A DNA stretch of 32,000 bases from Candidatus Borrarchaeum yapensis (lineage in GTDB: Archaea; Asgardarchaeota; Sifarchaeia; Borrarchaeales; Borrarchaeaceae): contig JAEOSF010000001.1 of assembly GCA_016840515.1 (NCBI GenBank), positions 50,447-82,446 on the forward strand, written 5' to 3'. Of the stretch, positions 8,265 to 25,072 are shown piece after piece. The notes beneath the pieces were generated by a model. The model ran no database searches, had not been told where the DNA came from, and saw only the letters and a list, made by a program, of their open reading frames with translations. Numbering within the stretch: position 1 is the first letter of the stretch; each line of letters opens with the position of its first letter. The translations under genes and the position numbers were made by a program.

Positions 8265-9458
8265 TTATCCGCGGATGCGAACCACCTCAGGGTGCGCCAT
8301 CACCCAGTTATCCCTCTCCACCATGCGTGGACCTGGGAATATCGGATTTGAAAGATTAGCCACTCCATTGACATCAGCATTGAGAACTTTATTAGCTGTT
8401 TTGCATACATATAAACCACGGTGTTTTCGACCATTTCTATGTCTTTTACCGCAAAGACTACAGGTTTGAGAGGTCCAACTTTCGTCTATCGTTTTGACAA
8501 TCATCCCAAAATTCTCGGCTGTTATGTTTAACCGATCGACAATATAGCGAAAACTCCAGAAGTTATGGATCATTGCGTTGGTTTTTTTCCCCTTATCATT
8601 ATCCACTCGGATATGGGTTAAATCACCTACCGATATTTCAGAAACACCCTTCTCATAACAGTCCTTGACGAATCGATAGATCATAGTGTTGATGCCCTGT
8701 CGAAATCTCCGTTTCCTTGTCCGATATAACTTGTTTAGTTTTTTTGTGGGCCTAGGTTTCCCTCCTAATTTCCTTTGATAGTTAGCTATTTGTTTGTTCC
8801 AATACCACCAGTCACTCAACAACGACTTCCCAGAATAGAGTTTCGCACGAGTATCACCTTCAGTATAAGTGGTGAGGACATTGATCACTCCCAGATCGAT
8901 GTACGCCTTCTTGTTTCCTAATGGTTGATGTAGAGGTGTGCACTCTACTGGTTGATAGGCATACCATCCTTTCGAGAGCATATCAAAGTGAATTTCAAGA
9001 CGTCCTTGTTTTCCATGCCAGTTTAAGTTTCCATGGTAGGTAATCGCTAATTTATTGGGCAACAAAAGCCGTCTGGCTTCAAATTTATAACAATCTGTAC
9101 GTATGAGTGACCTTAAAATTCGCTTGCCTGTTTTTCGATCTTTCCAGTAGCCAGGAGGTCTAATGACCTTGATATGAGGAGACAACTTCCCCTGCTTCTT
9201 TTTTCTTAAAAGTGCAAAAAAGGATTTCCAAGCCTCATTATTCTTGCGGATGATCTGTTGCGTTGTTGCAGAACCGATCTGAGGTGAAAAGTCCTGATAT
9301 TCTTCAGTGGTATCCCAGTCTAGAGTTCCATCGAAGAAGGATTGTCGCCGCTTAAAGGTTATTTTATTCCATAAGACAGAAGATAACGTGCATAAGGCAA
9401 ATAGTTTTGCCTCTTGATCCTCATCAGGAACTAATTTAAGGATATTAGTTCTTCTCAA
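8265..9458 (-). CDS. tnpB: TnpB (OrfB) RNA-guided nuclease-like protein
   Basis: IDLGVINVL (D188), TSQTCSLCG zinc finger, NADVNGVANL (D362). Start codon is TTG. Confidence 0.88.
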   Translation of the reverse strand: MRRTNILKLVPDEDQEAKLFALCTLSSVLWNKITFKRRQSFFDGTLDWDTTEEYQDFSPQIGSATTQQIIRKNNEAWKSFFALLRKKKQGKLSPHIKVIRPPGYWKDRKTGKRILRSLIRTDCYKFEARRLLLPNKLAITYHGNLNWHGKQGRLEIHFDMLSKGWYAYQPVECTPLHQPLGNKKAYIDLGVINVLTTYTEGDTRAKLYSGKSLLSDWWYWNKQIANYQRKLGGKPRPTKKLNKLYRTRKRRFRQGINTMIYRFVKDCYEKGVSEISVGDLTHIRVDNDKGKKTNAMIHNFWSFRYIVDRLNITAENFGMIVKTIDESWTSQTCSLCGKRHRNGRKHRGLYVCKTANKVLNADVNGVANLSNPIFPGPRMVERDNWVMAHPEVVRIRG

Positions 9459-10378: not shown

Positions 10379-10523
10379 TTGCCCAAAGGTTTTTTAGTAT
10401 TAATAAAGTGTTAGATTTAGGGATTACAGAATAAGTTTTGTCGAAAAAGTGTTTATTTGGAAACGTATTTAAAACACGATTATATTCTTTGTTTCGTTTG
10501 AGAAAGCACGGAGTGGAAATTTG

Positions 10524-11060
10524 ATGGAAGATGAATATGAAGATCCTCTGCCCTGTAATCAAGATCCTTTTATTAGTTTAGAACCATACACAGTTATTTC
10601 TGAATTGATTTCGCAGGCATTAAGGGATGGGGTCAAGTTGCGATGTATTCTGTGCGGTGAAAAAGTTTCTATTAGCAACGTTATTGTAGTACAGGGTCAT
10701 CATGTGATTCATGAAGACTGCTTTGTTAATACTATGTGCGATAATGAAAGGGTTATACAAGAATCTATCAAATTGGGAATCATGGGACGCGAAGAAATTA
10801 GTAAACGCTTGAAGAAGTTCCCCATTCGCTATGTACTTTCTAAATTACGCTGGGAGGTCAAAAAAAGGACGGGCGTAAGATTGCCGATCCCAATAAGAGA
10901 GAGAACCTTCAAGGAACTGCTGAAAAAGAACAAAGCGATAACAGAAACGAATGAACAACAATTAATCAACTGGTTTAAAACTGCAAGCTACCCGTCTAGT
11001 CTCAGTGATGACTATTCAAGCGTTGATGAGATGGACTCCTCATTTTCGTATTTCTCATAA
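10524..11060 (+). CDS. Hypothetical protein with LIM/treble-clef-like zinc motif
   Basis: C-x2-C-x18-H-x2-C (CILCGEK...HHVIHEDCF). ATG at 10524 with a GGAGTG ribosome-binding site fits better than TTG at 10521. Confidence 0.65.
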   Translation: MEDEYEDPLPCNQDPFISLEPYTVISELISQALRDGVKLRCILCGEKVSISNVIVVQGHHVIHEDCFVNTMCDNERVIQESIKLGIMGREEISKRLKKFPIRYVLSKLRWEVKKRTGVRLPIPIRERTFKELLKKNKAITETNEQQLINWFKTASYPSSLSDDYSSVDEMDSSFSYFS

Positions 11061-11300: not shown

Positions 11301-12545
11301 TTATTGTACCGCTTCTGCAAGAATTTCTGCAAACTTATAGACTTCTTCAAAAGTATTATATAGGGGATATGGCGCAACACGGATTATATCAGGCTCCCTC
11401 CAATCAACGGTTACCCCCCGATCTATCAACGTATCAAATAATTTCTTACCGTTTTTGAGAGTTCGAATTGAGAGTTGGCATCCTCGCTCATTAGCTTTTG
11501 AAGAGGTAATTATCTCGTAATTTTCAGGGCCTAATTCTTTTATCAAATACTCTAAATAGCCAGTCAATAACTCCCTTTTCTGATGAAAAAGAGATAGATC
11601 AAGCTCATCCCAAATGTTTAAAGCAGCTTTCAGACTTGCTAATAAAAGCACAGGATGTGTACTTATTTGCCAACCCGAAGCCCCAAGCGCTGGGTTAATG
11701 TCTGGCTCCATTAGGAACATCGTTTCACGTTTACCACCCCACCAGCCATCAAATCGAGGGAGATCTTTTTCAAAGTGGCGTTCATGTACGAAACATGCAC
11801 TTATTCCGCCAGGACCTGCATTGATGTACTTATAATTGCACCAAACGGCAAAATCTACATTCCAATCATGTAATTCAAGAGGGATATTTCCTACTGCATG
11901 TGCCAGATCGAAACCAACAACTGCCCCTTTTGCATGGGCTGCTTTAGTGATGGCTTCCATATCAAACGCTTGACCTGTAAGATAGTTAACTCCAGAAAAA
12001 AGGACTAAGGCGATAGATTCATTTATTGCATCAATAATGTCTTCTGTCCTGAGAATTGCTTCTCCGGGCCTAGCCTTAACTTCTATCAAAGAATCATTAA
12101 TTTCATGACCATGAAAACGGATTTGGGATTTAAGAGCATATTCATCACTAGGAAAAGTATGTTCTTCAATCAATATTCGATGTCTGTTTGTTGTTGTAGG
12201 ACAGAAAAAACTCACTAGAAGAAGATGAAGATTGACAGTCAAACTGTTCATGATTGAAACTTCTTCAGGCTGGGCACCTATAATACGTGCCATACTTTTA
12301 ACTAAATCATCTGAGTAAGAAAACCAGTTTTTAGACCCATGAAACCATCCTTCAACGCCTATCTCCTCCCATGTCTTAAGGATTTTGTCTATTTCAGTTC
12401 TTGCTGTTTTTGGTTGAAGACCTAATGAGTTGCCACAAAAATAGATTATGGAGTTGGGATAGTGGAACATTGTTCGAAATTTAGCTAATGGATCCGCCAA
12501 GTCCAGTTCTTTTGCAAACTCTAAACTTCGCTCAAATTCGATCAT
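11301..12545 (-). CDS. kynU: Kynureninase
   Basis: YFCGNSLGLQPK, NSLTVNLHLL, FDLAHAVGNIPLELHDWNVDFAVWCNYKYINAGPGG, GWWGG are characteristic of KynU. Confidence 0.9.
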   Translation of the reverse strand: MIEFERSLEFAKELDLADPLAKFRTMFHYPNSIIYFCGNSLGLQPKTARTEIDKILKTWEEIGVEGWFHGSKNWFSYSDDLVKSMARIIGAQPEEVSIMNSLTVNLHLLLVSFFCPTTTNRHRILIEEHTFPSDEYALKSQIRFHGHEINDSLIEVKARPGEAILRTEDIIDAINESIALVLFSGVNYLTGQAFDMEAITKAAHAKGAVVGFDLAHAVGNIPLELHDWNVDFAVWCNYKYINAGPGGISACFVHERHFEKDLPRFDGWWGGKRETMFLMEPDINPALGASGWQISTHPVLLLASLKAALNIWDELDLSLFHQKRELLTGYLEYLIKELGPENYEIITSSKANERGCQLSIRTLKNGKKLFDTLIDRGVTVDWREPDIIRVAPYPLYNTFEEVYKFAEILAEAVQ

Positions 12546-12589: not shown

Positions 12590-13477
12590 TTATTCATTTT
12601 TTAAAAGAAATCGAGGGAATTTCATCGCACTCTTAACTCTGTTTTCAAATATGCCAAGTTCTCTGACTCCAAAGCCCATTGAAAGCCCCAAAAGTTGCGG
12701 TAGATGAAGAACGGGGATGTCATAGTCGAGTTCCCAGAGTTCTTTAACCTTGATCTGATTTAAATCGAGGCTAAGAGAGCAGAACGGGCAGATAGTTATG
12801 AGCGCCTTAAGGGCTGCATCATGCGCAGTAGATATTATACGATGTGTCAGACGCCAAGCGACATCTGGGGCATTACTTAAGACGGGGGCTCCACAGCAGG
12901 ATATTTTTCCTTCATAATCTGATGCAATTGCTCCAGTAAGATTAATGATTTCATCCATATGCAGTGGTCGTTCAGGGTCTCCGTGATGTGTAATTTCAGA
13001 GGGGCGAAGCATGTGACAACCATAGTATGCTCCAACCTTAAGTCCGTCTTTAAATGGTATTTTAAGATGTTCCTTTATTCGTGGCAGTCCAACATCCTCA
13101 TAAAGAATTTTGAGAAAATGTTTAACTTCAAGTGTGCCATTATATTCTAGGTCAAAGTCTGATAGAATATTGTTAATATCTTCCCTTGCAGCATTATCTT
13201 TCTTTAAGTATTCATTTGCATGCATGATCGAACCTACGCAGCCGTTACATAAACAGCAAATATCTAAGTCCATTTTTTCAGCTGTAGCTAAAATTCTTGC
13301 CGACAACAATGTCCAATATTGTTCGTCCATTGAACGAACAATGGGTGAACCACAACATCCCGAATTAGGGAGATCAATCAGTTCTACACCTAGTTCCTTT
13401 GCAACTACACGGGAAGAGGCTTCATACCCGTTCATTTTTTCGGGAATAGTACAGCCTAGAAAAAGCGCATACTTCAC
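12590..13477 (-). CDS. hdrB: Heterodisulfide reductase subunit B (HdrB)
   Basis: Two cysteine-rich CCG-type domains (LPNSGCCGSP, CCLCNGCVGS, YYGCHMLRP, KISCCGAP, ICPFCSLSLD); start overlaps hdrC stop. Confidence 0.9.
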   Translation of the reverse strand: MKYALFLGCTIPEKMNGYEASSRVVAKELGVELIDLPNSGCCGSPIVRSMDEQYWTLLSARILATAEKMDLDICCLCNGCVGSIMHANEYLKKDNAAREDINNILSDFDLEYNGTLEVKHFLKILYEDVGLPRIKEHLKIPFKDGLKVGAYYGCHMLRPSEITHHGDPERPLHMDEIINLTGAIASDYEGKISCCGAPVLSNAPDVAWRLTHRIISTAHDAALKALITICPFCSLSLDLNQIKVKELWELDYDIPVLHLPQLLGLSMGFGVRELGIFENRVKSAMKFPRFLLKNE

Positions 13478-14019
13478 TATTTTTCACCAGTTTCTTCTTC
13501 AGGGGGTTTATAATGGACTAATTTGGTGAATTTAATCTTTTCTGCTAGTTTTCGCATTATATCTGCGTCAGGAGTAGGCAATTCAGGGAGTTTGAAGCGA
13601 GTTTGACGTATTTTATTTTCATATTCACCCACTTCATTCATTAAGCCAAAAGTTAAGATGTTAGCCGCGATATCTGACCATACGCTAGGTATAATGTTTT
13701 CTTTCGCTGCCATGTTTCTAAGGTGAACGAAAATTTCTGGAGGTTTTACATCTTGAGGACAACGCTCCTCACATACATAACAGCCTGTACATAACCAAAT
13801 GAGCGGGTTGTGCAGTACTGCTTCTCTATCACCTAACATGATAAGCCGAATGATATTTCTCGGACTGAATTCTTCGCCACCGAACCGTGCTACAGGACAG
13901 CTACCCGTGCATGTCCCGCACTGGTAACAGGCAAAAAGGTCAAATGAAAGGTCCTCGATAAATTCCTCTGCGAGGCTCAAGTCTAGATCTGAAAGCTTCA
14001 CTACTTTTTCAGTTTCCAA
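13477..14019 (-). CDS. hdrC: Heterodisulfide reductase subunit C (HdrC)
   Basis: CYQCGTCTGSCPVARF and CTGCYVCEERCPQDVKP 4Fe-4S motifs next to HdrB. Confidence 0.9.
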   Translation of the reverse strand: METEKVVKLSDLDLSLAEEFIEDLSFDLFACYQCGTCTGSCPVARFGGEEFSPRNIIRLIMLGDREAVLHNPLIWLCTGCYVCEERCPQDVKPPEIFVHLRNMAAKENIIPSVWSDIAANILTFGLMNEVGEYENKIRQTRFKLPELPTPDADIMRKLAEKIKFTKLVHYKPPEEETGEK

Positions 14020-14022
14020 GTT

Positions 14023-14472
14023 CTATTCCTTCTTCGCTTCCTCTACTTCTTTCTTTACACGCTCAATTTCGGCCAGTTGCCATTGGACAAATTCGTTGGT
14101 GTCACCTTTCATAAGTTTTGAAAGGTCTGCCTCCAAATTAGATGGGCTAATCTTGACCATCCAACCTTCGCCGTATGGATCAGTATTGACAAGTGAGGCA
14201 TTATCCCACAACCCTTCATTGAATGCAGTAACTTCACCTGCGACTGGGGCATAAATTTTGCCTGTCCACTTGCCGCTTTCTAGTGTTCCAAAAGGTTTCA
14301 TAAACTCTACCGTCTCACCTTCAAAAGGCAATTGCACAGCCTGAATTTTTTCAGCCATGGTTTGCGCAAAATCGGTCACGCCAACCACAACAATATCTCC
14401 TTCTACTCTTGCCCAAGAATGTTCAGTTGTATAATATAATTCATCTGGGAGATCATAATCTTCAATTTTCAT
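14023..14472 (-). CDS. gcvH: GcvH-like lipoyl-carrier protein
   Basis: YTTEHSWARVEGDIVVVGVTDFAQ ... TLESGKWTGKIYAPVAGEVTAFNE matches the GcvH fold; candidate lipoyl-Lys retained in ESGK. Confidence 0.85.
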   Translation of the reverse strand: MKIEDYDLPDELYYTTEHSWARVEGDIVVVGVTDFAQTMAEKIQAVQLPFEGETVEFMKPFGTLESGKWTGKIYAPVAGEVTAFNEGLWDNASLVNTDPYGEGWMVKISPSNLEADLSKLMKGDTNEFVQWQLAEIERVKKEVEEAKKE

Positions 14473-14557
14473 TTTTACATTCTCCTTTTCAATTTATGAA
14501 ATTGTTTTTTTTCAAAGGTTATATATAAGAAGCATCCCTGCGTAGGGAGCCAGTCCT

Positions 14558-14588
14558 TCTCTCAGTCCCTAAAGGGTTTCCCGAGAGA
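14558..14588 (-). promoter_or_regulatory. Archaeal-type SECIS element
   Basis: Minus strand UCUCUCGG-GAAA-CCC-UUUA-GGG-A-CUGAGAGA. Eight-pair lower stem, GAA(A)/A asymmetric internal loop, GC-only upper stem, in the 3' UTR directly after the hdrA-vhuD stop. Confidence 0.85.
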
Positions 14589-14590
14589 GA

Positions 14591-17500
14591 TCATTCCATT
14601 TCAGTTCGAGATATACGCGACGGATTGGGTCCAAGTTTCGAAATACTTTCGCCAAAGGTTTGCATTGCTTCTCTAAATTTTTCTGCTTCCGCGGATGAAA
14701 GGAAGTACATTACAGTTCTGCCTTCACCAAAACCCATAGTTTCAAGAAGTTTTTCAGCCAACTCAACAGACTTTTCTGCTTGTAAGTTTCCATCAATATA
14801 TGCACAGTCGCCTTTGTGTCATCCGACTACGGCGACACCGTCTGCGCCGAGTGAAAACGCATTAAGCAACCATGGAGTATCAATACGACCTGTACACGGC
14901 ACCCGTATAATTCGAGTTCGATAGTCATATTGAAGTTTTGAAAGCCCAGCTAAGTCTGCAGCACCATACCCACATTTTTCACAAGCAAAAACAAGAAGTA
15001 ATGATTTTTGCTTGCTTTCAGCTAAAAGTGATTCAATTTGTGGATAGAATTGCTCATCTCGCCAGTATCGAAGTTCTCTAGCTCCAGAGGGACATGCTGC
15101 AACGCATGTGCCGCAGCCCTTGCATTCAATTTCATCAGTAACCGAAACAAGTCCTCCTGCTTCAGTTTCTTTCGTAGTTATAGCATCGTATGGACAGGCG
15201 ATTACGCACACCTTACATCCGCTACAAAGATTCTCGTCACATACAGCCTTGATTAGTTCAAGTTGAATCTCTTTTTGTTGTAACAGTACGCCTGCTGCTG
15301 ATGCCGCTGCTTTACCTAGTACTATTGAGTCGCTTATGCTTCGTGGAGAAAGAACAGACCCTGCTACGTAAACGCCATCTTTTCGTGTTTCGACAGGTTT
15401 GAATTTTATGTGGATAGGCTCAAGAAAACCATCAGAAGAGCGAGTAACTCCTGTTATCTTACACAGTTCATCAAAGCCTTCAGGAGGTTCTTGCCCTACC
15501 GCTAGGACTACATAATCTGTGTCTATCTCGAATGTAGTTCGTGAAAGGGTATCGTATACTTGCACCATAGCATTTTCATTGTAGATTGCCGTAACCATCG
15601 GGGGTCTTTCTTCTGTCCATCGCATAAAATTGGAGCGATATTGTTTTCTTGTAGTTAGATAGAACTCTTCCATATACCTTCCGACAGGTCGCAAATCCTC
15701 CTTAAAGAGGACAAAGGTTTGACAGTTCGGAAAGAGTTCTTTCACGGTCTGCGCATTTTTCAGTGAGGCACCGCAACAAACACGAGAGCAGTATTTGTTT
15801 CCATCTTCTTCTCGTGAGCCAACGCACTGAATGAAGACAACACGTTTTGGTTCTTGATCAAAACTGCGCGTTTTAAGCAATTCCTCGAATTCAAGAGAAG
15901 TTACCACTCGTGGAACAGTATTGTAACCGTATTCGCCGTCCTTGGGAGAATATGTATTTGTTCCGACAGCTATAATTATAGCGCCAACGTTAATATCAGT
16001 GTTTTCTCCATTAATTCTCCTAATTTGTGTTGTAAAATCACCGATGTGACCATCAAGGGATTCCAATGAAGACTCAAGGTAAACCGAGATATTGGGAGCA
16101 TTAGATATCTGCGCTGTTAATTCATCCAAAATTTGGCTGGCTTCAGTTTTTTCTGGAAACACTTTGTAGAGAGAATTGAGACGACCACCAAGTTGAGAAT
16201 CTTTTTCCACGAGGTGAACATTGAATCCTTGATTAGATAAATCAAGGGCAGCCGACATTCCAGCAATTCCACCACCAATAATAAGAGCTTCATTGACAAC
16301 TGAAACCGTCCGATATGGCACAATCTCAAGATGTAATGCTCGTGCAATGCCAGCCCTGATCAAGTCCTTTACTTTTTCTGTGGCTTCTTTTTTTGTCTGC
16401 ATATGAACTTGCGCTGCCTGATCTCTTATGTTCACGTATTCAAGATAATACTTACTTACTCCAGCAGACTCTAAAAGAGTCCTAAATGTTTCTTCGTGAA
16501 GTAAAGGTGAACATGCTGCTACTAAAACCCGATTAATATTGAGTTCCTTTATCATCTCGCTGATTTGCTGTTGTCCTGGCTCACTACAGAAGAACTCATT
16601 GTTATCTACATAGATCACGCCAGGTAATGTCTTTGTATATTCCATGACTTCTGGTACGTCAATGTAATTTGCGATATTGCCACCGCAGTGGCATACAAAC
16701 ACGCCAAGTCGAGACTCATCGGTAACTTCTTCCTTTGTTTGAGGCGCATATGATGTTATGTGTGGTGGAGAACCAGATAAAAGGTTCACTGCAGACGATG
16801 CAGCAGCTCTTGCTTGAGTAACCGTATCCACAGCATCTTTTGAGCCTGTTGCCACTCCCGCGATAAAGATTCCATGTCGATTTGTTTCGATTGGATGATA
16901 ACTGTTGGTTTCAAGAGGAAATCCATCACCGCTAATTTTAATGCTTAATTTTTGGCATAGTTCATGTGTCCCTTCAGATGGAACAAATGAACTAGATAAG
17001 ACAACAAGGTCGATATTTTTGACCTGAGAAACTTCTCCAGTATTAGTATCTTCAACCCAGACAATCAAGTCTTTTGTTTCTTCGTTTTCTTGAATTTCCG
17101 CCACTTTACCGCGAATTAAATTAGGATTATAGCTATTCTGTGTGTCCCTGTAGTATTCTTCGTAAAGTTTTCCTGAGGATCTTATATCTATATAGCAAAT
17201 GTCTGCCTGTCCTTTTCCTTTTGATTGCAGTTTATAGGCTCTAGCTTGTTTTAATGCGAACATACAGCAGACTCGGTTACAGAATTTGTTGCCGACTTCC
17301 TTTTCACTTCTAGAGCCCACACATTGGACCCATAATACCCTGCTTGGTTCTTTCCCATCAGAAGGTCTCACTATCTTGCCATTAGTAGGACCTGTGGGAT
17401 GCATCATTCGTTCAAACTGAAGTGATGTAACAACGTTTTCGTAGTATCCATAGCCAAATTGTTTCAATGGTGTTGGGTCGAATTCATCAAAACCCGTGGC

Positions 17501-18076
17501 TACAATTATCGAGCCAACATTGATTTCGATGATCTCTTCGGCATCAACAAAGTTTATTGCTTCCGCAGGACACTCCATCTCACACATTCCACAATCTATG
17601 CACTGCTCCTTATCTAATCTAGGGATCTGGGGGACTGCCTGAGGAAAAGGAAGATAAATTGCTTTTCGTACACCTATACCCATATCGTATTCTGAAGTCA
17701 CTTCAACTGGACATACTTCAAGGCATTTTTGACATCCTGTACATTTGTCTGAATCGACATATCTAGGGCTTTGCTTGAGTTTTACCGTAAAGCTTCCTGA
17801 TTCACCATTTACCTCTAAAACTTCGGTTAGAGTAAACAAGCGAACATTGTCGTTTCTGGCAACGCTTGACATAAGTGGTGTAAGTGGTCAAGCCGAGCAC
17901 TCATCGGTCGGAAAGATTTTGTAAACCTGTGAAAATCGTCCTCCAATTGTTTCTCGTTTCTCTACTAGAAACGCCGTATAGCCTTGATTTGCAATATCTA
18001 GCGAAGCATACATGCCAGCCATTCCGCCGCCAATCACCAAGACACTTTCTGCCGCTTTACTTTCCAATGCATTCAT
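14591..18076 (-). CDS. hdrA: Selenoprotein: duplicated HdrA module fused to a ferredoxin domain and MvhD/VhuD domain, two Sec (UGA) codons
   Basis: Continuous minus-strand frame of 1161 codons if UGA at 17888-17890 and 14819-14821 are read as Sec. Joins ORFs 17888..18076 and 14819..17872 with the untracked tail UHKGDCAYIDGNLQAEKSVELAEKLLETMGFGEGRTVMYFLSSAEAEKFREAMQTFGESISKLGPNPSRISRTEME*. SECIS present in 3' UTR; RBS AGGAGG before ATG 18076. Confidence 0.93.
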
Positions 18077-18260
18077 TTAACGAACCTCCTACTTAGTGAA
18101 CACCTCCAAACTACCATAACTTAATGTTCGGTTGCTTTTATTCAATTCTTCTTTGATAATGTCAGCGTAATGCACTTCAAAATTATAAAAAAAGGTGGGG
18201 GCAACTGATGAGCACATATATCCCTATACACTTGTAATACTTGGTTAGATATTTGTCACA

Positions 18261-19448
18261 TTAGCGATAACTGTCAACTACACCTGCTGAATAGGCAACA
18301 AGTCTTGGCAATTCTAAAACGCGAATGCGTTCTCTGTAAGCCCTCATTCCAATTGAATGATGACACGTAGGGCAAGTCGTGAGAATATATTGTACACCTA
18401 ACTTAGCTGCGTCTTTGACAATTTCATCACTTAGATCGTTTCTTAGTTCAGTGTATGGTACACGGATCGGTCCACCGCAACATCTCGCGTCTCCTTTTGT
18501 TTCTGGTAACTCAACGAACTCAATACCTGGAATACTTTCTATGATCTTCCGAGGAGGGTCGTATTTAAGTGCGTATCTCCCGAGATGGCATGGATCCTTG
18601 AAGGTAACCTTTCCCTCAAGGGGTTTCGTCATTTTTATTTTACCATCATCGATTAAACGTTCAAGCACTTCCGAAATATGATATGCTTTTGGAGTATCCG
18701 GAGAGATTGCTTTATACTCCTCATTGAAGACTGAAGCGCACATCGGACATGCTGTGATTATAGTCTCAATCCCTCGCGATTTAAAGAGTTCGATGTTTTT
18801 CTTAGCAGCTTTCTCAAAATATGGTTTGAATCCTAACCAACTAAGAAATCCTCCGCAACAACTCTCTGAATCGAACATCGTAAACTCTTCTCCAGCGGCT
18901 TTCAAGAGTTTAACTCCCGCACGTGAATTATCGGGATAATCAATAGTCCCTACACAACCAGCGTAATAGAGCGTTGAAGATTCCTTTGGTAAGGTTGCTT
19001 TTATTTCGCCAAAAACCTCGTTGAACACGACAGGATAATCCATTCCATGGGTATTTCCTTTCTCAAGAATGCTGTCAGCAATACCCCTATGCTCTGAAAG
19101 CGTATAATTGTTGTCGGCTAGATATTCACGCACGCGATCCATAACGTCTACCACTTTTATTTTTGCTGGACAGTGTTCCTCACACTTTTTGCACAATGTG
19201 CATGTGTAAAGAATTTCCATTGCATAATCATCAACGGGAAATCCTCCTTCAATGAGAGCTCGCTCTAGCATGATCCTTCCTCGACAGTTGTAACTTTCCA
19301 TCTGTGTAGCATCAAAAATCGGACATGCAAACCTACAAAATCCGCATCGTACGCATCTGTATGTTTCTGTTTCAGCATCAGCGTCAATCCTCATTTTCTT
19401 ATGTTTTGGTTTAAGCATTGTACCCGAAACTACATCTTCTTGTGTCAT
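18261..19448 (-). CDS. Fe-S oxidoreductase, GlcF/HdrD-like (2x 4Fe-4S plus 2 CCG domains)
   Basis: CVRCGFCRFACP, CTLCKKCEEHCP, YYAGCVGTIDYPDN, SESCCGGFL, FKDPCHLGRYAL, RCCGGP. Confidence 0.88.
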   Translation of the reverse strand: MTQEDVVSGTMLKPKHKKMRIDADAETETYRCVRCGFCRFACPIFDATQMESYNCRGRIMLERALIEGGFPVDDYAMEILYTCTLCKKCEEHCPAKIKVVDVMDRVREYLADNNYTLSEHRGIADSILEKGNTHGMDYPVVFNEVFGEIKATLPKESSTLYYAGCVGTIDYPDNSRAGVKLLKAAGEEFTMFDSESCCGGFLSWLGFKPYFEKAAKKNIELFKSRGIETIITACPMCASVFNEEYKAISPDTPKAYHISEVLERLIDDGKIKMTKPLEGKVTFKDPCHLGRYALKYDPPRKIIESIPGIEFVELPETKGDARCCGGPIRVPYTELRNDLSDEIVKDAAKLGVQYILTTCPTCHHSIGMRAYRERIRVLELPRLVAYSAGVVDSYR

Positions 19449-19450
19449 CT

Positions 19451-20869
19451 CTAGTCATCCTCCAAGATGTTAATTCTTTGGCCTGGAATTGGTAATACGT
19501 GACCAGGGCAGAAAATATTTTTAGGATCAAATGCATTCTTGATCTTTTTCTTTAATTCTAACACTTTAGGTTGGTGTTCAACGGGCATCATCATAAGTTT
19601 GGAAACACCAATTCCATGTTCCCCAGTGACCGTCCCTTCTAATTCAACTGCTGCATGCCACAAGTCAACTAATGTTTGTAGGGCGCGCCTATGTTCATCA
19701 GGATCTCGTTCATCCCACAAAAGTATAGGATGAAGATTTCCATCTCCTGCGTGACCGAATGTGGCAATTTCGATCCCATTCTTTTCGCTTACTCTATCAA
19801 TCTCTTGGAACATCGTCGGTAGGTTTTTTAGAGGTACTGATACGTCTTCCATTCGTGCAGTTGGCCGTCGAAGTGTTAGTGCTGGAAATGCAGCCTTTCT
19901 AGCTGCCCAGACTTGTGTACATGTTTCCAGATCTCGTGCTGTTTCGGATTTGATTGCTCCCATCTCTTTGAACAAATCTTCCAGTTTATCTAGCCGCATC
20001 TCAACGTCATCTCTATTCCCATCTAATTCCACAAGGACAACAGCTCCGCATTCGGGGAATTTTAAGGTTCCTGAATATTCTTCTACTGCCTTAAGTGTCT
20101 TGTAATCAAGAATTTCTGTTCCTGAGGGGTCAAATCCTCTTTTAATGATTTCTCTGACGCACTTTCCTGCTTCAAAAGCGGAATTGAAATAGCCACTAGC
20201 CACGAGACGGACTGCTGGCAAAGGTTGAATTTTGAGCATTGCCTTGGTAATAATACCCAGAGTCCCTTCTGATCCTACAAAAAGTGAAACAAGATCGTAG
20301 CCACAAACAAATTTAATTGCTTTATTGCCGATATTAACGACACTCCCATCTGATAGGACGATTTCCAAGCCCATAACCCACTCTTCGGTGACTCCATATT
20401 TAAGTGCACGAATTCCGCCGCTATTATTATTTACCATACCGCCAATTGTAGCTGTTTTGTCCGATGCTGGATCCGGCGGAAAGTAAAATCCATAGGGCTC
20501 TAAGTAGGTATTGAGGTCTAGACACACCATACCAGGCTCAACGGTTATTAGAAAGTTCTCAACATCGAGATCTACAACCTTGTTCATCCTTGCGACCACC
20601 AAAATCAAACAATCAGGCTTTGCAGGGATGACACCCCCGCTAACGTTGCTTCCAGCCCCTCTTGGAATAATTGAGAATCCTTCTTCATTAGCTAGCTTCA
20701 CGATATCTGCGACCTCTTCTGTGGTATTAGCAAAGGCCACGGCTGCTGGCATACCTGTATCAATGCTAGCATCGCGTGAGTAAATATACAGATCGATTGC
20801 ATGATTTAAAACATTGTTTTCTCCAACTATTTTTTTCAGGGCGGGAATGATTGTGCCCTGCCAATCCAA
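19451..20869 (-). CDS. glcD: FAD-linked oxidase, glycolate/D-lactate dehydrogenase GlcD-like
   Basis: FSIIPRGAGSNVSGG, FPPDPAS..ATIGGMVNNNSGG, GSEGTLGIITKA, EHGIGVSK. Confidence 0.9.
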   Translation of the reverse strand: MDWQGTIIPALKKIVGENNVLNHAIDLYIYSRDASIDTGMPAAVAFANTTEEVADIVKLANEEGFSIIPRGAGSNVSGGVIPAKPDCLILVVARMNKVVDLDVENFLITVEPGMVCLDLNTYLEPYGFYFPPDPASDKTATIGGMVNNNSGGIRALKYGVTEEWVMGLEIVLSDGSVVNIGNKAIKFVCGYDLVSLFVGSEGTLGIITKAMLKIQPLPAVRLVASGYFNSAFEAGKCVREIIKRGFDPSGTEILDYKTLKAVEEYSGTLKFPECGAVVLVELDGNRDDVEMRLDKLEDLFKEMGAIKSETARDLETCTQVWAARKAAFPALTLRRPTARMEDVSVPLKNLPTMFQEIDRVSEKNGIEIATFGHAGDGNLHPILLWDERDPDEHRRALQTLVDLWHAAVELEGTVTGEHGIGVSKLMMMPVEHQPKVLELKKKIKNAFDPKNIFCPGHVLPIPGQRINILEDD

Positions 20870-21118: not shown

Positions 21119-22108
21119 TTGAGTGGAAAACCTAAAGTTTTTGTTTCTCGTATAATCCCAAAGCCAGCTTTAGATATGATCAATGTGGAGTGTAAGATGG
21201 AATTTAATGAAAGTGATATCCCTCTTACACAGGCTGAGTTTATTGAAAAAATGAAAACACTTGACGGGCTTGTTTGCCTACTTACTGACGACATTAATGC
21301 CGAAATCCTAAAATCCGTTAAAGAAGCAAACCCTAATTTTAAAGTAGTCAGCAATGTAGCAGTAGGTTACAACAACATCGACTGGAAGGCAGCCACAGAA
21401 TTAGGTATCGCAGTATCCAATACCCCAGGAGTTCTAGATGACACAACTGCAGATTTTACCTGGGCACTTCTCATGGCAGTTGCTCGACGCGTTGTCGAGG
21501 CAGATAAGTATTTCCGCCAAAAAACGTGGAAAGGATGGGGTATAATGCAGTTTCTTGGTTCTGATGTCTACGGGAAAACACTGGGAGTCGTTGGACTAGG
21601 AAGAATTGGACGAGTGGTAGCTAAAAGGGCTAAGAGTTTTGACATGAAAGTTCTTTATACAGATGTTGTCCGGTTCGAGGATCTGGAAAAAGAATTAGGA
21701 CTCCAATATGTGGATAAAGAGACAATTCTTAAAGAATCAGACTATGTAACTTTGCATGTTCCCTTGATTCCAGAAACTAAACACTATATTGGTGTAAAAG
21801 AACTAGAAATGATGAAAGAAACCGCGTATTTGATTAATGCATCACGAGGTCCCGTTGTAGATGAAAAAGCGCTCGTTAAAGCATTACAGGAGAAAAAGAT
21901 TGCTGGTGCTGGTTTGGATGTCTTTGAAATGGAGCCTAAAGCTGAACCAGAACTTTATGAAATGGATAACGTTGTGTTAGCACCACATATCGCAAGTGCA
22001 TCAATAGAGACTCGTACTAAAATGGCGACCATGGCTGCTGAAAATGTCATTGCTGGCGTTAAGGGACTCAAACCACCAAATTGTGTTAATCCAGAAATTT
22101 ATGGATAA
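21119..22108 (+). CDS. D-2-hydroxyacid dehydrogenase, glyoxylate/hydroxypyruvate reductase-like
   Basis: GKTLGVVGLGRIGRVVAKRAKSFDMKVLYTD, NASRGPVVDEKALVKAL, DVFEMEP; TTG start. Confidence 0.88.
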   Translation: MSGKPKVFVSRIIPKPALDMINVECKMEFNESDIPLTQAEFIEKMKTLDGLVCLLTDDINAEILKSVKEANPNFKVVSNVAVGYNNIDWKAATELGIAVSNTPGVLDDTTADFTWALLMAVARRVVEADKYFRQKTWKGWGIMQFLGSDVYGKTLGVVGLGRIGRVVAKRAKSFDMKVLYTDVVRFEDLEKELGLQYVDKETILKESDYVTLHVPLIPETKHYIGVKELEMMKETAYLINASRGPVVDEKALVKALQEKKIAGAGLDVFEMEPKAEPELYEMDNVVLAPHIASASIETRTKMATMAAENVIAGVKGLKPPNCVNPEIYG

Positions 22109-22144
22109 CCCTCTAAAAAAATAAACAAAATAGGAGAGAAGATT

Positions 22145-23857
22145 ATGCCTAAAATGCAAGTAGCGGAAGTTATAGTAAAAATTCTTGAAGATGAAGGAGT
22201 AACAGCAATGTTTGGTATACCGGGCGCAGCAATAAATCCCGTCTACAAATACCTTGGGCAAACAACAAAAATTAAGCACTATATTGCTCGACATGAAGAA
22301 GGAGCATGCCATGCAGCTGACGGATATGCACGAGCAACTGGAAAAGTTGGCGTCTGTATCTGTACAAGCGGACCTGCAGCGACAAATTTTGTAACAGGTC
22401 TCTATACTGCTCAAGTTGACTCTATCCCAATTGTCGCAATTACTGGGACAGCAACGAGAGCAGTATTGGGTCAAGAGGCGTTTCAAGCGGTTGACATAGC
22501 AGAAATAGTTAAACCAGTGACTAAGAAAAGTTATTGTGTTAGGGAGCCTTATCGCCTCCCAGGTACTATGAGGGAAGCTTTTCGAATCGCTAGAGAAGGA
22601 AGACCCGGACCAGTGCTTATTGATCTCCCCGTTGACCTCCAGAGAACAGAAATTGAATATGATCCAGAAACAGATCGTAGTTTAGACTTTTCGACACCCA
22701 AAGCAAATGAAAAACAAATCAAGAAAGCAATTGATATGATCTTGGAAGCTAAGAATCCAATCATCTTAGCCGGAGGAGGAGTCATTATTTCGGGCGCTTC
22801 CAAAGAACTCCAAGAATTAGCAGAATATTTAAGTTTACCCATCTGTGCTAGTTACATGGGAAAGAGTGCTCTTGACACTAATCATCCATTATACGCGGGA
22901 CTAGTCGGTACCATCATGCAAACAAGACTTGGCAACAAATTATTCTTAGAGAGCGATCTTGTTCTAGCGGTTGGTGCCAGATTTGTTGACCGTCATACGG
23001 GTAAACTAGATGTTTACACGAAAGACAGAAAATTCATCCACATTGACATTGATCCTCTACAAATTGGCAAGATCGTCCCCACAGAGTTAGGAATTGTATC
23101 AGATGCCAAAGTAGCACTACAAATGATGATCGATCAAGCCAAAGCTCGAAATGCAAAAGTAATGCCAAATGAATGGGTATCGTCTATACCTGCCCGACGT
23201 AAAGAGCTTGCGAGAAGATTAGACTTTGATAATGTGCCAATCAAACCTCAAAGACTTTTCAAAGAAATAAATGAATTCTTTGATGATGACACAATTTTTG
23301 TGACGTCAGTCGGACTTAATCAGATTTGGAGCGGTCAATATCAAGAAATAAAGAAACCAGGACATTACAAGGTCTGTGGATGCGCGGGAACGTTGGGTTG
23401 GGATTTACCAGCTTCGATTGGGGCTAAAGTCGGATACGAGGAAATGGGAATGCCTGAAAAGAAGGTCGTAGGCATCACAGGAGATGGCGGATTAGGATTC
23501 ATGGTAGAAGAATTAGCGATGGCGGCCCACTATCAAACTCCAATAGTTATGCTGGTGCTTAACAATGGCTTCTTGAGCTTGATTAGACAAAACCAGAGCA
23601 TCGTTTATGACTATGAATATGCGGTAGATCTTACATACGATACAAATAAGCTTGAAAAACATGGAATAGGAATAGATTTCGTTAAGCTTGCAGAAGCTTT
23701 TGGACTATACGCTGAACGAGTCGAAAAACCTGAAGATCTAAAGGCTGCTTTCCAGAGAGGCCTAGATAACGCCCCAGCGGTATTAGATATTATATGTGAA
23801 CGTGAAACTAATTGTAGTATGGGGTTAGCTCTGGACGCTATAGCTGAAAGAGGATAA
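22145..23857 (+). CDS. gcl: Thiamine-diphosphate enzyme, glyoxylate carboligase (tartronate-semialdehyde synthase)-like
   Basis: FGIPGAAINPVYK, EAFQAVDIAEIVKPVTK, RHTGKLDVYTKDRKFIHIDIDPLQIGK, FDNVPIKPQR, NNGFLSLIRQNQ, CERETNCSMGLALD closely resemble E. coli Gcl signatures. Confidence 0.78.
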   Translation: MPKMQVAEVIVKILEDEGVTAMFGIPGAAINPVYKYLGQTTKIKHYIARHEEGACHAADGYARATGKVGVCICTSGPAATNFVTGLYTAQVDSIPIVAITGTATRAVLGQEAFQAVDIAEIVKPVTKKSYCVREPYRLPGTMREAFRIAREGRPGPVLIDLPVDLQRTEIEYDPETDRSLDFSTPKANEKQIKKAIDMILEAKNPIILAGGGVIISGASKELQELAEYLSLPICASYMGKSALDTNHPLYAGLVGTIMQTRLGNKLFLESDLVLAVGARFVDRHTGKLDVYTKDRKFIHIDIDPLQIGKIVPTELGIVSDAKVALQMMIDQAKARNAKVMPNEWVSSIPARRKELARRLDFDNVPIKPQRLFKEINEFFDDDTIFVTSVGLNQIWSGQYQEIKKPGHYKVCGCAGTLGWDLPASIGAKVGYEEMGMPEKKVVGITGDGGLGFMVEELAMAAHYQTPIVMLVLNNGFLSLIRQNQSIVYDYEYAVDLTYDTNKLEKHGIGIDFVKLAEAFGLYAERVEKPEDLKAAFQRGLDNAPAVLDIICERETNCSMGLALDAIAERG

Positions 23858-23887
23858 GTTAGAAAACCAATAAAAGGCGGTGAAAAA

Positions 23888-24802
23888 ATGAAGAAACACT
23901 GGGATCTTTATATGAAAATCGGTATAGTACATGGAATGGTGTTTCCAGAATGCCTTGCGGGAGAAGGTCCAATACTCGAAACGCTTACTAAGATAGCAGA
24001 AGATGGATTCTTCTCAGCAATTGACTATGGTGGATGCAAAGATCCAGCAATCAAAGGTGATGTAGCAGCACTCTTAAAAGCATCTCGCTTAACCGTCAAC
24101 TTCTCAGCACAACCAGCTCTATTGCTCCCGAAACTTAATTTGAACGCATTAGACGAAGAATTACGAAATCGATCTATACAGGCAATAAAATCATGTATTG
24201 ACGAAGCCTACGAAGTTGGTGCAGAATATTTAACCGTTCTAAGTGGTCCTTATCCAGGTGATGCAGATAGTGAAAAGGGAATGACATTGTTAATCGATTC
24301 CTTAAATCAACTTTGTGAATACGCGAAAAGTAAAGGAAATCTCGCATTAGCTTTAGAGGTCTTTGACCGTGAGATTGATAAAAAATCTTTGATAGGGCCA
24401 TCTGAATCAGCAGTAGAGGTTGCTAAGGCAGTACGTGAGGCAGGATATCCTACTTTTGGCTTAATGCATGATTTAAGTCATCTTCCATTGCTAAATGAAA
24501 CACCTGCCCATGCGTTGTCGACTACGAAGAAGTATTTAACACTTGTGCACTTGGGGAATTGCGTCAAAGACCCAAACAATCCTTTATATGGAGATCAACA
24601 TCCGATCTTCGGTATAGAAGGAGGAGAAAATGACGCAAAAGAGTTGGCAGAATACCTGAATGCTCTTTTTGAAATTGATTACTTAGAAAAAGGTAAACGC
24701 CCATTTGTTAGTTTCGAAGTAAAACCTCATAAAGGTATTACATCAGAGATGGCCATAGCAAATGTAAAACGTACATTAAAAGAGGCTTGGACACAAGTTT
24801 AA
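23888..24802 (+). CDS. Sugar phosphate isomerase/epimerase (TIM barrel), possible hydroxypyruvate isomerase-type enzyme
   Basis: AP-endonuclease-2-like TIM barrel signatures (EVFDREIDKKSLIG, GLMHDLSHLPLL, LVHLGNCVKDP, FVSFEVKPH). Confidence 0.7.
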   Translation: MKKHWDLYMKIGIVHGMVFPECLAGEGPILETLTKIAEDGFFSAIDYGGCKDPAIKGDVAALLKASRLTVNFSAQPALLLPKLNLNALDEELRNRSIQAIKSCIDEAYEVGAEYLTVLSGPYPGDADSEKGMTLLIDSLNQLCEYAKSKGNLALALEVFDREIDKKSLIGPSESAVEVAKAVREAGYPTFGLMHDLSHLPLLNETPAHALSTTKKYLTLVHLGNCVKDPNNPLYGDQHPIFGIEGGENDAKELAEYLNALFEIDYLEKGKRPFVSFEVKPHKGITSEMAIANVKRTLKEAWTQV

Positions 24803-25022
24803 GCCTTCTAATCTCCTTTTTATTTTTTGTCGCGAAAAAACTGTTTTTTCAAAAGATGAACGTGCGCTAAAAAAGCAAAGATATACTAAGGTATTGAAAT
24901 CTTCTTGAATTTGAAAAAACTGCGTTTGAGGGAAAATCTTTATATACAGTATAAGTATAAAGCACACAATATAAATTTCAATTGGTTTTAGGTGAGGTTG
25001 GGATGCTGTACCAAGGAGTTTA

Positions 25023-25072
25023 GGGACAAAGTTTGTCCCACGGATGTTCAGAACGGGAGAAACTTGTCCCGT
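25023..25072. repeat. Two adjacent palindromes sharing a GGGA…TCCC core
   Basis: GGGACAAAGTTTGTCCC (25023-25039) and ACGGGA-GAAACTTG-TCCCGT (25053-25072). Confidence 0.6.

Follow-up and report, generated by a model that had tools for sequence, protein, structure and literature searches.

Lokiarchaeota are known to encode selenoprotein gene pairs of HdrA and VhuD that share one lokiSECIS (Mariotti et al. 2016, PMC4989117), and the Asgard selenoproteome has been surveyed by Huang et al. 2024 (PMC11227280). Cryo-EM structures of the Methanococcus maripaludis proteins, HdrA with Sec197 and VhuD with two Sec residues, are available (9sfi/9t1s; PMC13518236). Fused HdrA dimers have been described as HdrA3/4 of ANME archaea and as the MetFV-associated HdrA of Moorella (Chadwick et al. 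2022, PMC9012536). BamE of class II benzoyl-CoA reductase is also a fused HdrA dimer, and BamF of the same enzyme is MvhD-like and contains Sec (bioRxiv 10.64898/2026.04.10.717634). Sec-containing HdrA and MvhD in Asgard archaea including the Borrarchaeal lineage, HdrA-MvhD fusions and fused HdrA dimers are all already published, and the gene reported here, which joins HdrA and VhuD in a single chain, is for the most part an expected addition to these known selenoprotein families. We consider it very probable that this gene encodes one selenoprotein of 1161 residues in which UGA63 and UGA1086 are both read as Sec via a single SECIS overlapping the stop codon, and which combines an HdrA pseudo-dimer with MvhD. 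The window analyzed here is a stretch of 32,000 nucleotides from a Borrarchaeum-like Asgard archaeon (Borrarchaeum/Sifarchaeia group), in which the gene and its two UGA codons are located as follows.

14591..18076, minus strand: coding sequence of the HdrA-HdrA-MvhD selenoprotein, 1161 codons and a TGA stop at 14591-14593
17888..17890, minus strand: UGA1, predicted Sec63, between KIFPTDECSA and PLTPLM; motif C60-S-A-U63
14819..14821, minus strand: UGA2, predicted Sec1086, between GADGVAVVG and HKGDCAYIDGN; motif VVG-U-HKGDC of the MvhD domain

Translation of the minus strand from 14591 to 18076 gave TGA at codons 63 and 1086 as the only internal stops, 3.07 kb apart within one ORF, confirming the original prediction of a single 1161-codon frame. 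The absence of TAA and TAG from 1161 codons at about 41% GC rules out a chance origin of the frame. When the whole window was scanned for TGA codons with at least 45 stop-free codons on each side, UGA1 and UGA2 were the sole matches on a coding strand, and two others were antisense to real genes. Full-length collinear orthologues were found in four related loci (L001, L002, L003 and L082). Gene callers truncate the gene because of its two internal UGA codons, as had been anticipated: the ORF list cuts the frame into 62 aa (17888-18076), 1017 aa (14819-17872) and 56 aa (14591-14761, from a TTG start), and the NCBI call for the L001 orthologue, P0001, is likewise truncated at 1017 aa. Of the 1161 residues, public gene calls keep 1017; both ends of the protein are lost, and with them the FAD-binding motif and one half of the MvhD domain.

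Codon 63 aligns exactly with the X (Sec) at residue 197 of M. maripaludis HdrA (9sfi_A) and with Cys197 of 5odc_A, in agreement with the prediction that UGA1 occupies the conserved HdrA cysteine. Its context is the FPTxDC-x-x-[U/C] motif of the thioredoxin-reductase-like domain that characterizes HdrA selenoproteins. The counterparts of codon 1086 are the second X of VhuD (9sfi_K, VFVAGXKPNEC) and, in the MvhD motif GCHxGDCH, the first Cys, where UGA2 had been placed. The first methanococcal VhuD Sec site is Cys1035 here and only the second is UGA, so that in place of the two Sec about 50 codons apart of methanococcal and Loki VhuD we find Cys1035 and Sec1086. Homologues have Cys at both Sec sites; at site 1 these include Loki and Thor proteins among others.

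Describing the protein as an HdrA-VhuD fusion proved right for its C-terminus, where Pfam PF02662 (FlpD) matches residues 1028-1149 with E = 1.8e-43 over profile positions 2-123 of 123, and where VhuD/MvhD chains of the PDB match at 1e-28 to 1e-35. The HdrA part is not one unit but two complementary modules.

16757..18049, minus strand: HdrA module 1, residues 10-440, aligning to HdrA residues 144 to ~577
17549..17764, minus strand: inserted 2x[4Fe-4S] ferredoxin domain of module 1, residues 105-176, from the HdrA alignment
16307..16699, minus strand: HdrA N-terminal-type domain of module 2, residues 460-590 (CHCGG...), aligning to HdrA 3 to ~135
15257..16294, minus strand: thioredoxin-reductase-like domain of module 2, residues 595-940, Pfam Pyr_redox_2
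15077..15244, minus strand: C-terminal 2x[4Fe-4S] ferredoxin domain, residues 945-1000, aligning to HdrA 577-653
14630..14995, minus strand: MvhD/VhuD (FlpD) domain, residues 1028-1149, with Cys1032, Cys1035, Sec1086 and Cys1091

Module 1 is a thioredoxin-reductase-like FAD domain with GGGMAG (16-21), CSAU, CNRVCC (266-271) and Lys276, and Pfam Fer4_9 matches its inserted ferredoxin domain at residues 111-174; it has neither the N-terminal domain nor the C-terminal ferredoxin domain. The thioredoxin-reductase-like domain of module 2 aligns to residues 136-234 and 316 to ~560 of 9sfi_A. This module carries GGGIAG (601-606) and CSRVCC (763-768), has EKTEASQI in place of the Cys194/Sec197 motif and has lost the inserted ferredoxin domain, while Pfam Fer4_7 marks the C-terminal ferredoxin domain at residues 951-999. 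The FAD Rossmann motif, the CxRVCC [4Fe-4S] motif and the ferredoxin domains identify the protein as a member of the HdrA family. Instead of the canonical single HdrA of four domains (about 650 aa, homodimer), however, one chain holds two partial units, the first with the Sec197 position and the inserted ferredoxin and the second with the N-terminal domain and the C-terminal ferredoxin, which is the composition of a fused heterodimeric HdrA. Judged by its sequence, the protein is MvhD joined to a fused HdrA pseudo-dimer whose two units have lost complementary domains. GGGMAG precedes UGA1 and the FlpD domain extends across UGA2, so none of the truncated ORFs would be functional. Lysine is present beside flavin N5 in both FAD modules (K276 and K773), so the Lys-versus-Gln criterion derived from BamE does not discriminate between the two flavins as the bifurcating one.

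The 3' end of the gene carries three further elements.

14554..14594, minus strand: eSECIS-like element, from folding and conservation, agreeing with the published type II model
14536..14549, minus strand: second hairpin, CUCCCU-ACGC-AGGG, directly 3' of the SECIS and invariant in four loci
14519..14528, minus strand: putative archaeal TATA box for gcvH-hdrCB, UUAUAUAUAA, invariant and ~50 nt upstream of the gcvH ATG

In the type II PatScan model for Asgard archaea, the core 5'-(AU)GA ... [G/A]A-3' flanks a 7-15 bp upper stem that tolerates up to 2 mismatches, followed by a bulge of 3-6 nt, a ministem of 2-8 bp, a loop of 2-6 nt and 1-6 nt on the 3' side, and Asgard eSECIS elements are located between ~30 nt before and 600 nt after the 3' end of their selenoprotein gene (PMC11227280). 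The candidate element agrees with this model in core, stem, bulge, ministem, loop and location, and it overlaps the stop codon. Its AUGA (14594-14591) contains the stop UGA of the coding sequence and its GA is at 14555-14554; between them are the 5' strand (14590-14581, 10 nt), the GAAA bulge and CCC/GGG ministem (14580-14566) and the 3' strand (14565-14556). The 10-bp stem has one C.A mismatch and is perfect in L003; above it come GAAA as a 4-nt bulge and a 3-bp ministem capped by a loop of 3-4 nt, with a single nucleotide, A, on the 3' side. Upstream of the element, UGA2 is ~225 nt away and UGA1 ~3.3 kb.

Across loci the SECIS is ~90% identical, as opposed to ~45% at four-fold degenerate sites. 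Its GGAAA, which supplies the unpaired adenines typical of the start of the apical loop or bulge in Asgard elements, is invariant across four loci and fits the G[U/G]AAA motif of SECIS elements of hdrA/frhD in Sifarchaeia/Borrarchaeales (PMC11227280). Substitutions among orthologues preserve or improve pairing, and in L002, whose coding sequence stops at an earlier TAA, AUGA is still present. The four Borrarchaeal orthologues hardly differ in this element, and RNAalifold and pair counting accordingly detected no compensatory double changes in the helix. Relative to the Loki-type VhuD SECIS (L123 and L129), helix positions 1, 2, 4, 7 and 8 differ on both sides and still pair when the elements are aligned by anatomy; this comparison used a scripted register of helix positions, and MAFFT gave no structural alignment. 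A CCCU...AGGG hairpin of equivalent type follows the SECIS in both of these loci. The fold of the 126-nt region was no more stable than that of shuffled sequence (z = -0.82). None of the Rfam SECIS models matched, either at the gathering threshold or with a limit of E <= 10, consistent with the reported failure of SECISearch3 on Asgard SECIS elements (PMC11227280), and a simple search downstream of the split VhuD gene in L128 gave no candidate. A metagenome scan with a pattern that fixed only the unpaired SECIS parts returned 119 stretches, 117 of them chance matches and two real copies (L010 and L082), and added no new stem diversity. The conserved UUAUAUAUAA downstream is likely an archaeal TATA box with a promoter role.

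Relatives were examined for coding conservation across the UGAs, and they keep TGA and frame with a third-position bias of substitutions. TGA is found at every readable site in five Borrarchaeota-type loci (L001, L002, L003, L082 and L010; 96-69% protein identity), L010 covering site 2 only and site 1 being readable in four, and the whole frame of ~1161-1166 codons is intact in the 4 complete loci. Identity at four-fold degenerate sites among related loci is ~0.45, nearly saturated. Substitutions at the three codon positions number 9/8/35 before UGA1 and 17/10/30 after UGA2, and the bias towards third positions extends to the segment between the two UGAs. The separate VhuD genes of L123, L128 and L129 also have TGA at the site equivalent to UGA2. 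Among Loki-type relatives, Sec-VhuD genes were seen to be uncalled or split. From these sequence comparisons it is well supported that the 1161-codon gene is real and that both internal UGAs encode selenocysteine.

Decoding may also be conditional, such that under scarce selenium UGA1 or UGA2 terminates translation or is read as Cys. The products would then be mixed, including a 1085-residue HdrA-HdrA with truncated MvhD and a full-length Cys form, with the Sec/Sec protein one of several. To our knowledge, Sec decoding and termination are in competition in every system studied, which counts in favor of this explanation, as do the 3.3 kb between UGA1 and the SECIS and the common occurrence of Cys-type paralogues and orthologues in Asgard genomes. 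However, half of the MvhD fold would be missing from a product that ends at UGA2, purifying selection acts on the codons beyond UGA2 and the sequence gives no sign of regulated termination, and we regard this explanation as improbable. We give next to no credence to a pseudogene or a sequencing or assembly artefact, with the TGAs as true stops and at most fragments made: gene callers and NCBI do annotate the 1017-aa middle piece only, but the TGAs recur in five independent assemblies wherever a site can be read, with protein divergence reaching ~30%, all three segments are under purifying selection with synonymous sites near saturation, both TGAs fall on experimentally known Sec positions, relatives show no frame decay past them, and the fragments would leave out the FAD-binding motif and cut the MvhD domain in two.

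The tRNA-Sec has been shown for lw60_2018_gm2_56, the closest genome and the source of L001, and Sec machinery has been reported for Sifarchaeia as a class (PMC9723677). Neither tRNA-Sec nor Sec machinery genes (SelB/EFSec, PSTK, SepSecS, SelD) were identified within the 32-kb window, so their presence in the genome rests on the relative and the literature. That UGA stands genome-wide for a standard amino acid such as Trp, Gly or Cys, Sec playing no part, is scarcely conceivable: TGA is a rare stop in the window, but it is an ordinary one in 3 of 23 genes, all three confident and the selenoprotein gene among them, no other window gene has an in-frame TGA, homologues have Cys and not Trp or Gly at both sites, a conserved SECIS-like element stands at the 3' end of the gene, and the published tRNA-Sec of the closest genome (PMC9723677) points the same way.

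The selenoprotein gene lies between a pair of GlcD-like and HdrD-like genes and a GcvH-HdrC-HdrB group.

19451..20869, minus strand: GlcD-like FAD-linked 2-hydroxyacid dehydrogenase, operon gene 1, Pfam FAD_binding_4 and FAD-oxidase_C
18261..19448, minus strand: HdrD-like protein, Fer4_8 and two CCG domains
14023..14472, minus strand: GcvH-type lipoyl-carrier protein, Pfam GCV_H 7.6e-37, NCBIfam GcvH subfamily above cut-off
13477-14019, minus strand: HdrC-like gene, Pfam/NCBIfam, below equivalog cut-off
12590-13477, minus strand: HdrB-like gene, Pfam/NCBIfam, below equivalog cut-off

Synteny of the GlcD-like gene extends to all related loci, and the HdrD-like, HdrC-like and HdrB-like genes are syntenic too. 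The GcvH-type protein keeps the lipoyl-lysine motif LESGKW, and the operon has no hydrogenase gene. The GlcD-like protein scores 436 bits against NCBIfam GlcD, under the 568-bit cut-off; as GlcD, HdrB, HdrC and Gcl-like matches are all below NCBIfam equivalog cut-offs, substrate assignments are soft.

In the preferred reading, that of one full-length selenoprotein, the ribosome would decode UGA63 and UGA1086 as selenocysteine, an insertion that we infer, and a single eukaryote-like SECIS would direct both recodings, the stop UGA doubling as the 'UGA' of the AUGA core. The protein would act as a self-contained asymmetric HdrA 'dimer' joined to an MvhD adaptor. Module 1 would give an FAD domain, the ferredoxin insertion and the redox-active pair C60-x-x-U63 (equivalent to HdrA Cys194/Sec197). 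Module 2 would give the N-terminal [4Fe-4S] domain, which in canonical HdrA contacts residue 197 of the partner protomer, and the MvhD domain would give the [2Fe-2S] entry point, with Sec1086 beside it. Most likely the selenoprotein forms a flavin-based electron-bifurcating or confurcating complex with the GlcD-like/HdrD-like proteins, HdrC, HdrB and GcvH. Such a complex could link oxidation of a D-2-hydroxyacid, glycolate or D-lactate being the presumed donor, to ferredoxin and to a disulfide handled by HdrB. This disulfide substrate may be the lipoyl group of GcvH instead of CoM-S-S-CoB; GcvH as a disulfide carrier was proposed earlier for Culexarchaeia. The full combination of one SECIS recoding UGAs 3.07 kb apart, the far one ~3.3 kb from the SECIS and so past the ~2 kb span known from Lokiarchaeota, the second hairpin as part of the element, and a glycolate/D-lactate-to-ferredoxin and GcvH-lipoyl Hdr complex with a Cys-Sec selenenylsulfide relay is speculative, and we think it rather unlikely to hold in every part. 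If true, it would represent an Hdr system with a protein-bound disulfide replacing CoM-S-S-CoB, in a single-chain HdrA pseudo-dimer, and the second hairpin after the SECIS would be a previously undescribed part of the element.

The gene would be a clear natural case in which one eukaryote-like SECIS of an archaeon works across more than 3 kb inside a single cistron, and such long-range action in an Asgard gene bears on its origin before eukaryotes. The Cys-Sec pair of HdrA and the Sec of MvhD, debated in cryo-EM work as thiol/selenol relays, are placed here in one obligately asymmetric chain, and a single-chain HdrA-HdrA-MvhD could be convenient for dissecting Hdr-type electron bifurcation. 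The presence of GcvH in the operon suggests, for Asgard archaea, a disulfide substrate other than CoM/CoB that could be tested. The original prediction held that both Sec sites in one polypeptide are unusual. The combination, two sites 3.07 kb apart served by one SECIS, was indeed not found described in the literature, where the supplements of Huang et al. 2024 may list the gene, whereas its components are all known.

The locus shares with the Lokiarchaeota pairs and the Asgard selenoproteome (PMC4989117, PMC11227280) the same two families, the canonical Sec position of HdrA, a single SECIS that follows the VhuD part and serves distant UGAs, and an AUGA...GA core to which the stop codon can belong. 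There, however, hdrA and vhuD are separate adjacent genes with an HdrA of ~660 aa, whereas here they form one ORF with HdrA doubled; the UGAs span 3.07 kb compared with ~2 kb reported for Lokiarchaeota, and the SECIS is type II-like, with a ministem, while the reported major form for hdrA/frhD is type I. In M. maripaludis, Sec197 in C-x-x-U and the second VhuD Sec correspond to Sec63 and Sec1086, and MvhD/VhuD is likewise the [2Fe-2S] adaptor to HdrA. Its subunits are separate and its HdrA is a symmetric homodimer, in contrast to the single chain here, where the first VhuD Sec is Cys; its partner is Vhu hydrogenase or Fdh, whereas the neighbours here are GlcD-like, HdrD-like and GcvH.

ANME HdrA3/4, Moorella HdrA and BamE similarly have two HdrA units per chain, of which one has lost Cys197 and the other the N-terminal domain, although in ANME HdrA3/4 the module order is reversed, the N-terminal unit having the N-terminal domain and lacking Cys197. 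As in BamE, the chain begins with TrxR1 and has its CxxC pair near residues 59-62, but BamE has Cys in this pair and Gln at the second FAD, where our protein has Sec and, in both modules, Lys. As in BamF, the MvhD-type adaptor carries Sec; BamF is a separate, longer subunit whose Sec19 is the first VhuD site, whereas here the second site is Sec. HdrA2 of Methanosarcina and Archaeoglobus has MvhD fused to the HdrA C-terminus as here, with a single HdrA unit. The Cys-type tandem HdrA-MvhD fusions of Asgard and other archaea are collinear with our protein, 1140-1210 aa long, and align over 97-100% of it; like HdrA2, they are 38-41% identical to it and have Cys at both sites.

Read on the minus strand, window 14591-18076 translates into 1161 codons and ends in a TGA stop; within this frame the only stops are two TGA codons:

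17888-17890 (-), UGA1, codon 63, in the context KIFPTDECSA(UGA)PLTPLM
14819-14821 (-), UGA2, codon 1086, in the context VAVVG(UGA)HKGDCAYIDGN

A scan of the whole window found no other TGA with long stop-free flanks on a coding strand. TGA serves as the normal stop in 3 of the 23 confident window genes. In the mechanical ORF list the frame appears as three separate ORFs of 62, 1017 and 56 aa. The original prediction had described this frame with its two UGAs, and every coordinate proved correct by translation, by the ORF list and by the window-wide TGA scan. Its forecast that the gene would be called in truncated form is borne out in the related locus L001, whose public NCBI product is the 1017-aa piece (P0001). 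None of the truncated ORFs could be functional, as the FAD-binding motif precedes UGA1 and UGA2 falls within the FlpD domain.

Codon 63 aligns to residue 197 of Methanococcus maripaludis HdrA (9sfi_A), deposited as X (Sec), and to Cys197 of the Cys-type HdrA chain 5odc_A. Codon 1086 aligns to the second X of M. maripaludis VhuD (9sfi_K, VFVAGXKPNEC) and to the first Cys in GCHxGDCH of MvhD chains, while the first VhuD Sec site corresponds to Cys1035 in the window protein. Both assignments agree with the original prediction, which had placed UGA1 at the conserved Cys of the HdrA motif and UGA2 at the first Cys of the MvhD GCH motif. Three full-length relatives, all of them Asgard, were retrieved by a genome search, and a metagenome scan contributed further loci:

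L001, Ca. Borrarchaeum weybense lw60_2018_gm2_56, 91% identity, genome search
L002, Borrarchaeota Yap75.bin3.45, 70% identity, genome search
L003, Promethearchaeota DZ3M.366, 69% identity, genome search
L082, 96% identity, metagenome scan
L010, partial locus covering the UGA2 site only, metagenome scan

TGA is present at each UGA site in every one of these loci that covers the site, even though the window shares only ~0.45 identity with L002 or L003 at four-fold degenerate sites. Substitutions by codon position number 9/8/35 before UGA1 and 17/10/30 after UGA2, dominated by the third position, and the same concentration holds between the two UGAs. Farther homologs carry Cys at both sites; the tandem HdrAs of Loki, Thor and Hel genomes have CSAC at the UGA1 motif, and tandem HdrA-MvhD fusions of 1140-1210 aa have CS[IM]C and GCHxGDCH. 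We read both UGAs as Sec codons on the basis of sequence comparison.

A predicted SECIS element begins at the stop codon of the gene:

14594-14591 (-), AUGA, with the stop UGA as its last three bases
directly after AUGA (-), SECIS 5' strand of 10 nt, UCUCUCUCGG
apical part (-), GAAA bulge, CCC/GGG ministem, 3-4-nt loop and one unpaired A
complementary strand (-), CUGAGAGAAG
14555-14554 (-), closing GA

This element agrees with the type II eSECIS-like model of Huang et al. 2024 (PMC11227280) in all numerical criteria, and its GGAAA fits the G[U/G]AAA variant reported there for hdrA/frhD of Sifarchaeia/Borrarchaeales. The 56-nt element is ~90% identical between loci with near-saturated synonymous sites. 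Its few changes keep pairing (C-G to U.G) or gain it (C.A to U-A), and the one remaining change falls at a weak helix position adjoining the core, a U.G wobble in the window and an unpaired A/G in L002. The CDS of L002 ends at a TAA two codons earlier and yet AUGA is retained, so that the SECIS rather than the stop accounts for its conservation. There are no compensatory double substitutions in the Borrarchaeal SECIS set, the fold was not exceptional when compared with shuffles of the 126-nt region, and an Rfam search of the element matched no model.

To gain SECIS divergence, we examined the closest non-Borrarchaeal relatives, the Loki/Hel-type loci L123 and L126-L129. Three of these encode a Cys-type tandem HdrA and, after it, VhuD as a gene of its own that has an in-frame TGA at the UGA2 site (ISVG(TGA)HPGDCEY):

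L123, 7085-7512, separate VhuD gene with TGA at 7300
L128, 5544-5969, separate VhuD gene
L129, 5618-6016, separate VhuD gene

Public annotations either omit these TGA-containing genes or break them into two small ORFs, and L126 and L127 have intact Cys versions of VhuD. The SECIS anatomy of L123 and L129 is the same as in the window, and at five helix positions in the same register both sides differ from the window while pairing is kept. Because these elements were aligned by their anatomy, such covariation is supportive of the window SECIS but not decisive. Overall, the analysis supports the original prediction's interpretation of a two-Sec HdrA-VhuD fusion.

A second small hairpin (CUCCCU-loop-AGGG; window 14536-14549, minus strand) lies directly 3' of the SECIS GA. 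The Borrarchaeal loci show no variation in it, and it is found again after the Loki-type VhuD SECIS (L123 ~7559-7575, L129 ~6050-6066); it may belong to the SECIS or signal the 3' end of the transcript. Loki and Hel genomes also possess a large conserved Hdr array (L123 543-4004; upstream genes in L126-L129), ordered as a Cys-type HdrAA-MvhD fusion (~1140-1170 aa), a tandem HdrA (~1020 aa), MvhD, 92-aa and ~440-aa proteins, and another HdrA-MvhD (~700-800 aa).

Pfam identifies two FAD/NAD(P)-binding oxidoreductase modules, two pairs of 4Fe-4S ferredoxin motifs and a C-terminal FlpD/MvhD domain (residues 1028-1149, E = 1.8e-43). Alignment to solved HdrA structures divides the rest of the chain as follows:

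residues 10-~440, HdrA 144-~577, TrxR-like domain with inserted ferredoxin domain
residues 460-691, HdrA 3-234, N-terminal cluster domain and start of the second TrxR-like domain
residues 698-1027, HdrA 316-653, remaining TrxR-like domain and C-terminal ferredoxin domain

After residue 691, the second TrxR-like domain has no inserted ferredoxin domain. [quoted passage not shown] From this alignment, the predicted protein joins two complementary HdrA units and, behind them, MvhD in one chain.

The minus-strand operon around hdrAA-mvhD is syntenic in all related loci and encodes, in order, a GlcD-like FAD dehydrogenase, an HdrD-like protein (Fer4_8 and two CCG domains), HdrA-HdrA-MvhD, GcvH, HdrC-like and HdrB-like proteins and kynureninase. 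Other features of the operon and its surroundings are:

14519-14528 (-), invariant UUAUAUAUAA, ~50 nt upstream of the gcvH start
14023-14472 (-), GcvH-type protein between hdrAA-mvhD and hdrCB, lipoyl-lysine intact
11301-12545 (-), kynureninase, last Hdr-operon gene, 441 bits against an NCBIfam equivalog cut-off of 246
10521-11060 (+), 179-aa ORF, 81-97% conserved and syntenic in L001, L002 and L010, no Pfam match
8265-9458 (-), TnpB/IS605 OrfB-type gene with OrfB_IS605 and Cas12f1-like TNB domain
21119-26392 (+), divergently transcribed cluster resembling glyoxylate metabolism

UUAUAUAUAA is likely an archaeal TATA box, which would give gcvH-hdrC-hdrB a separate promoter within the operon. 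No other glycine-cleavage genes occur in the window. Kynureninase is an unexpected partner in an Hdr cluster, syntenic in L001, L002 and L010. Conservation and synteny mark the 179-aa ORF as a real gene of unknown function, while the TnpB/IS605 gene is probably a recent insertion since it is absent at the syntenic position of L001 and L002. The divergent cluster encodes a glyoxylate reductase-like protein, a glyoxylate carboligase (Gcl)-like TPP enzyme (725 bits, below the cut-off of 791), a Hyi-like protein (xylose-isomerase-like TIM barrel) and a class V aminotransferase resembling aspartate-glyoxylate aminotransferase. The Gcl-like sequence is ~98% identical in full-length comparisons (L001, L003).

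Compared with L001, L002, L003 and L082, divergence is mosaic between window 18077-20869 and 14591-18076. Identity of the GlcD-like gene is 95% with L002 and 86% with L001, that of the HdrD-like gene 92% and 75%; HdrAA-MvhD shows the opposite pattern, with 91% for L001 and 70% for L002. The pattern points to recombination with a breakpoint between hdrD-like and hdrAA-mvhD.

By homology with HdrABC-MvhADG and BamDEF, the products could form a flavin-based bifurcating or confurcating complex, in which MvhD would deliver electrons to FAD. Following what was proposed for M. maripaludis Sec197 (PMC13518236), the Cys60-Sec63 pair may sit beside the N-terminal cluster and serve as a ligand or as a selenenylsulfide relay. 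A disulfide would be processed by HdrBC; as gcvH lies between hdrA and hdrCB, lipoyl-GcvH is a plausible candidate for it, an idea raised earlier for Culexarchaeia (PMC9723716); GcvH may be the carrier of the disulfide acted on by HdrB. For the L001 genome, Sun et al. 2021 (PMC9723677) depicted nine copies of the Dld-HdrD cluster. The divergent glyoxylate-type neighbors suggest glycolate as an alternative donor to D-lactate and hint that the GlcD-like enzyme oxidizes glycolate.

Sec-HdrA and Sec-VhuD have been published for methanococci, Deltaproteobacteria and Asgard archaea, as have a shared SECIS downstream of VhuD, with an AUGA able to double as stop codon, HdrA-MvhD fusions and fused HdrA dimers. 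HdrA and MvhD were listed among Sifarchaeia selenoproteins by Sun et al. 2021 (PMC9723677), who also showed tRNA-Sec of the L001 genome. We did not find described in the literature the combination of both Sec sites in a single polypeptide with a doubled HdrA, one ministem-type SECIS for UGAs 3.07 kb apart, and a far UGA 3.3 kb from the SECIS, where the reported span is ~2 kb. Huang et al. 2024 (PMC11227280) describe hdrA and frhD as genes that are always neighbors, separated by short intergenic regions; this suggests that each fused case may have been scored as two genes. Exactly the same complementarity of HdrA units has been described for tandem or fused HdrAs of ANME archaea and Moorella (Chadwick et al., PMC9012536), and likewise by cryo-EM for BamE of class II benzoyl-CoA reductase (bioRxiv 10.64898/2026.04.10.717634), which also starts with TrxR1 and has Cys59-Cys62 at nearly the same position as Cys60-Sec63 here.
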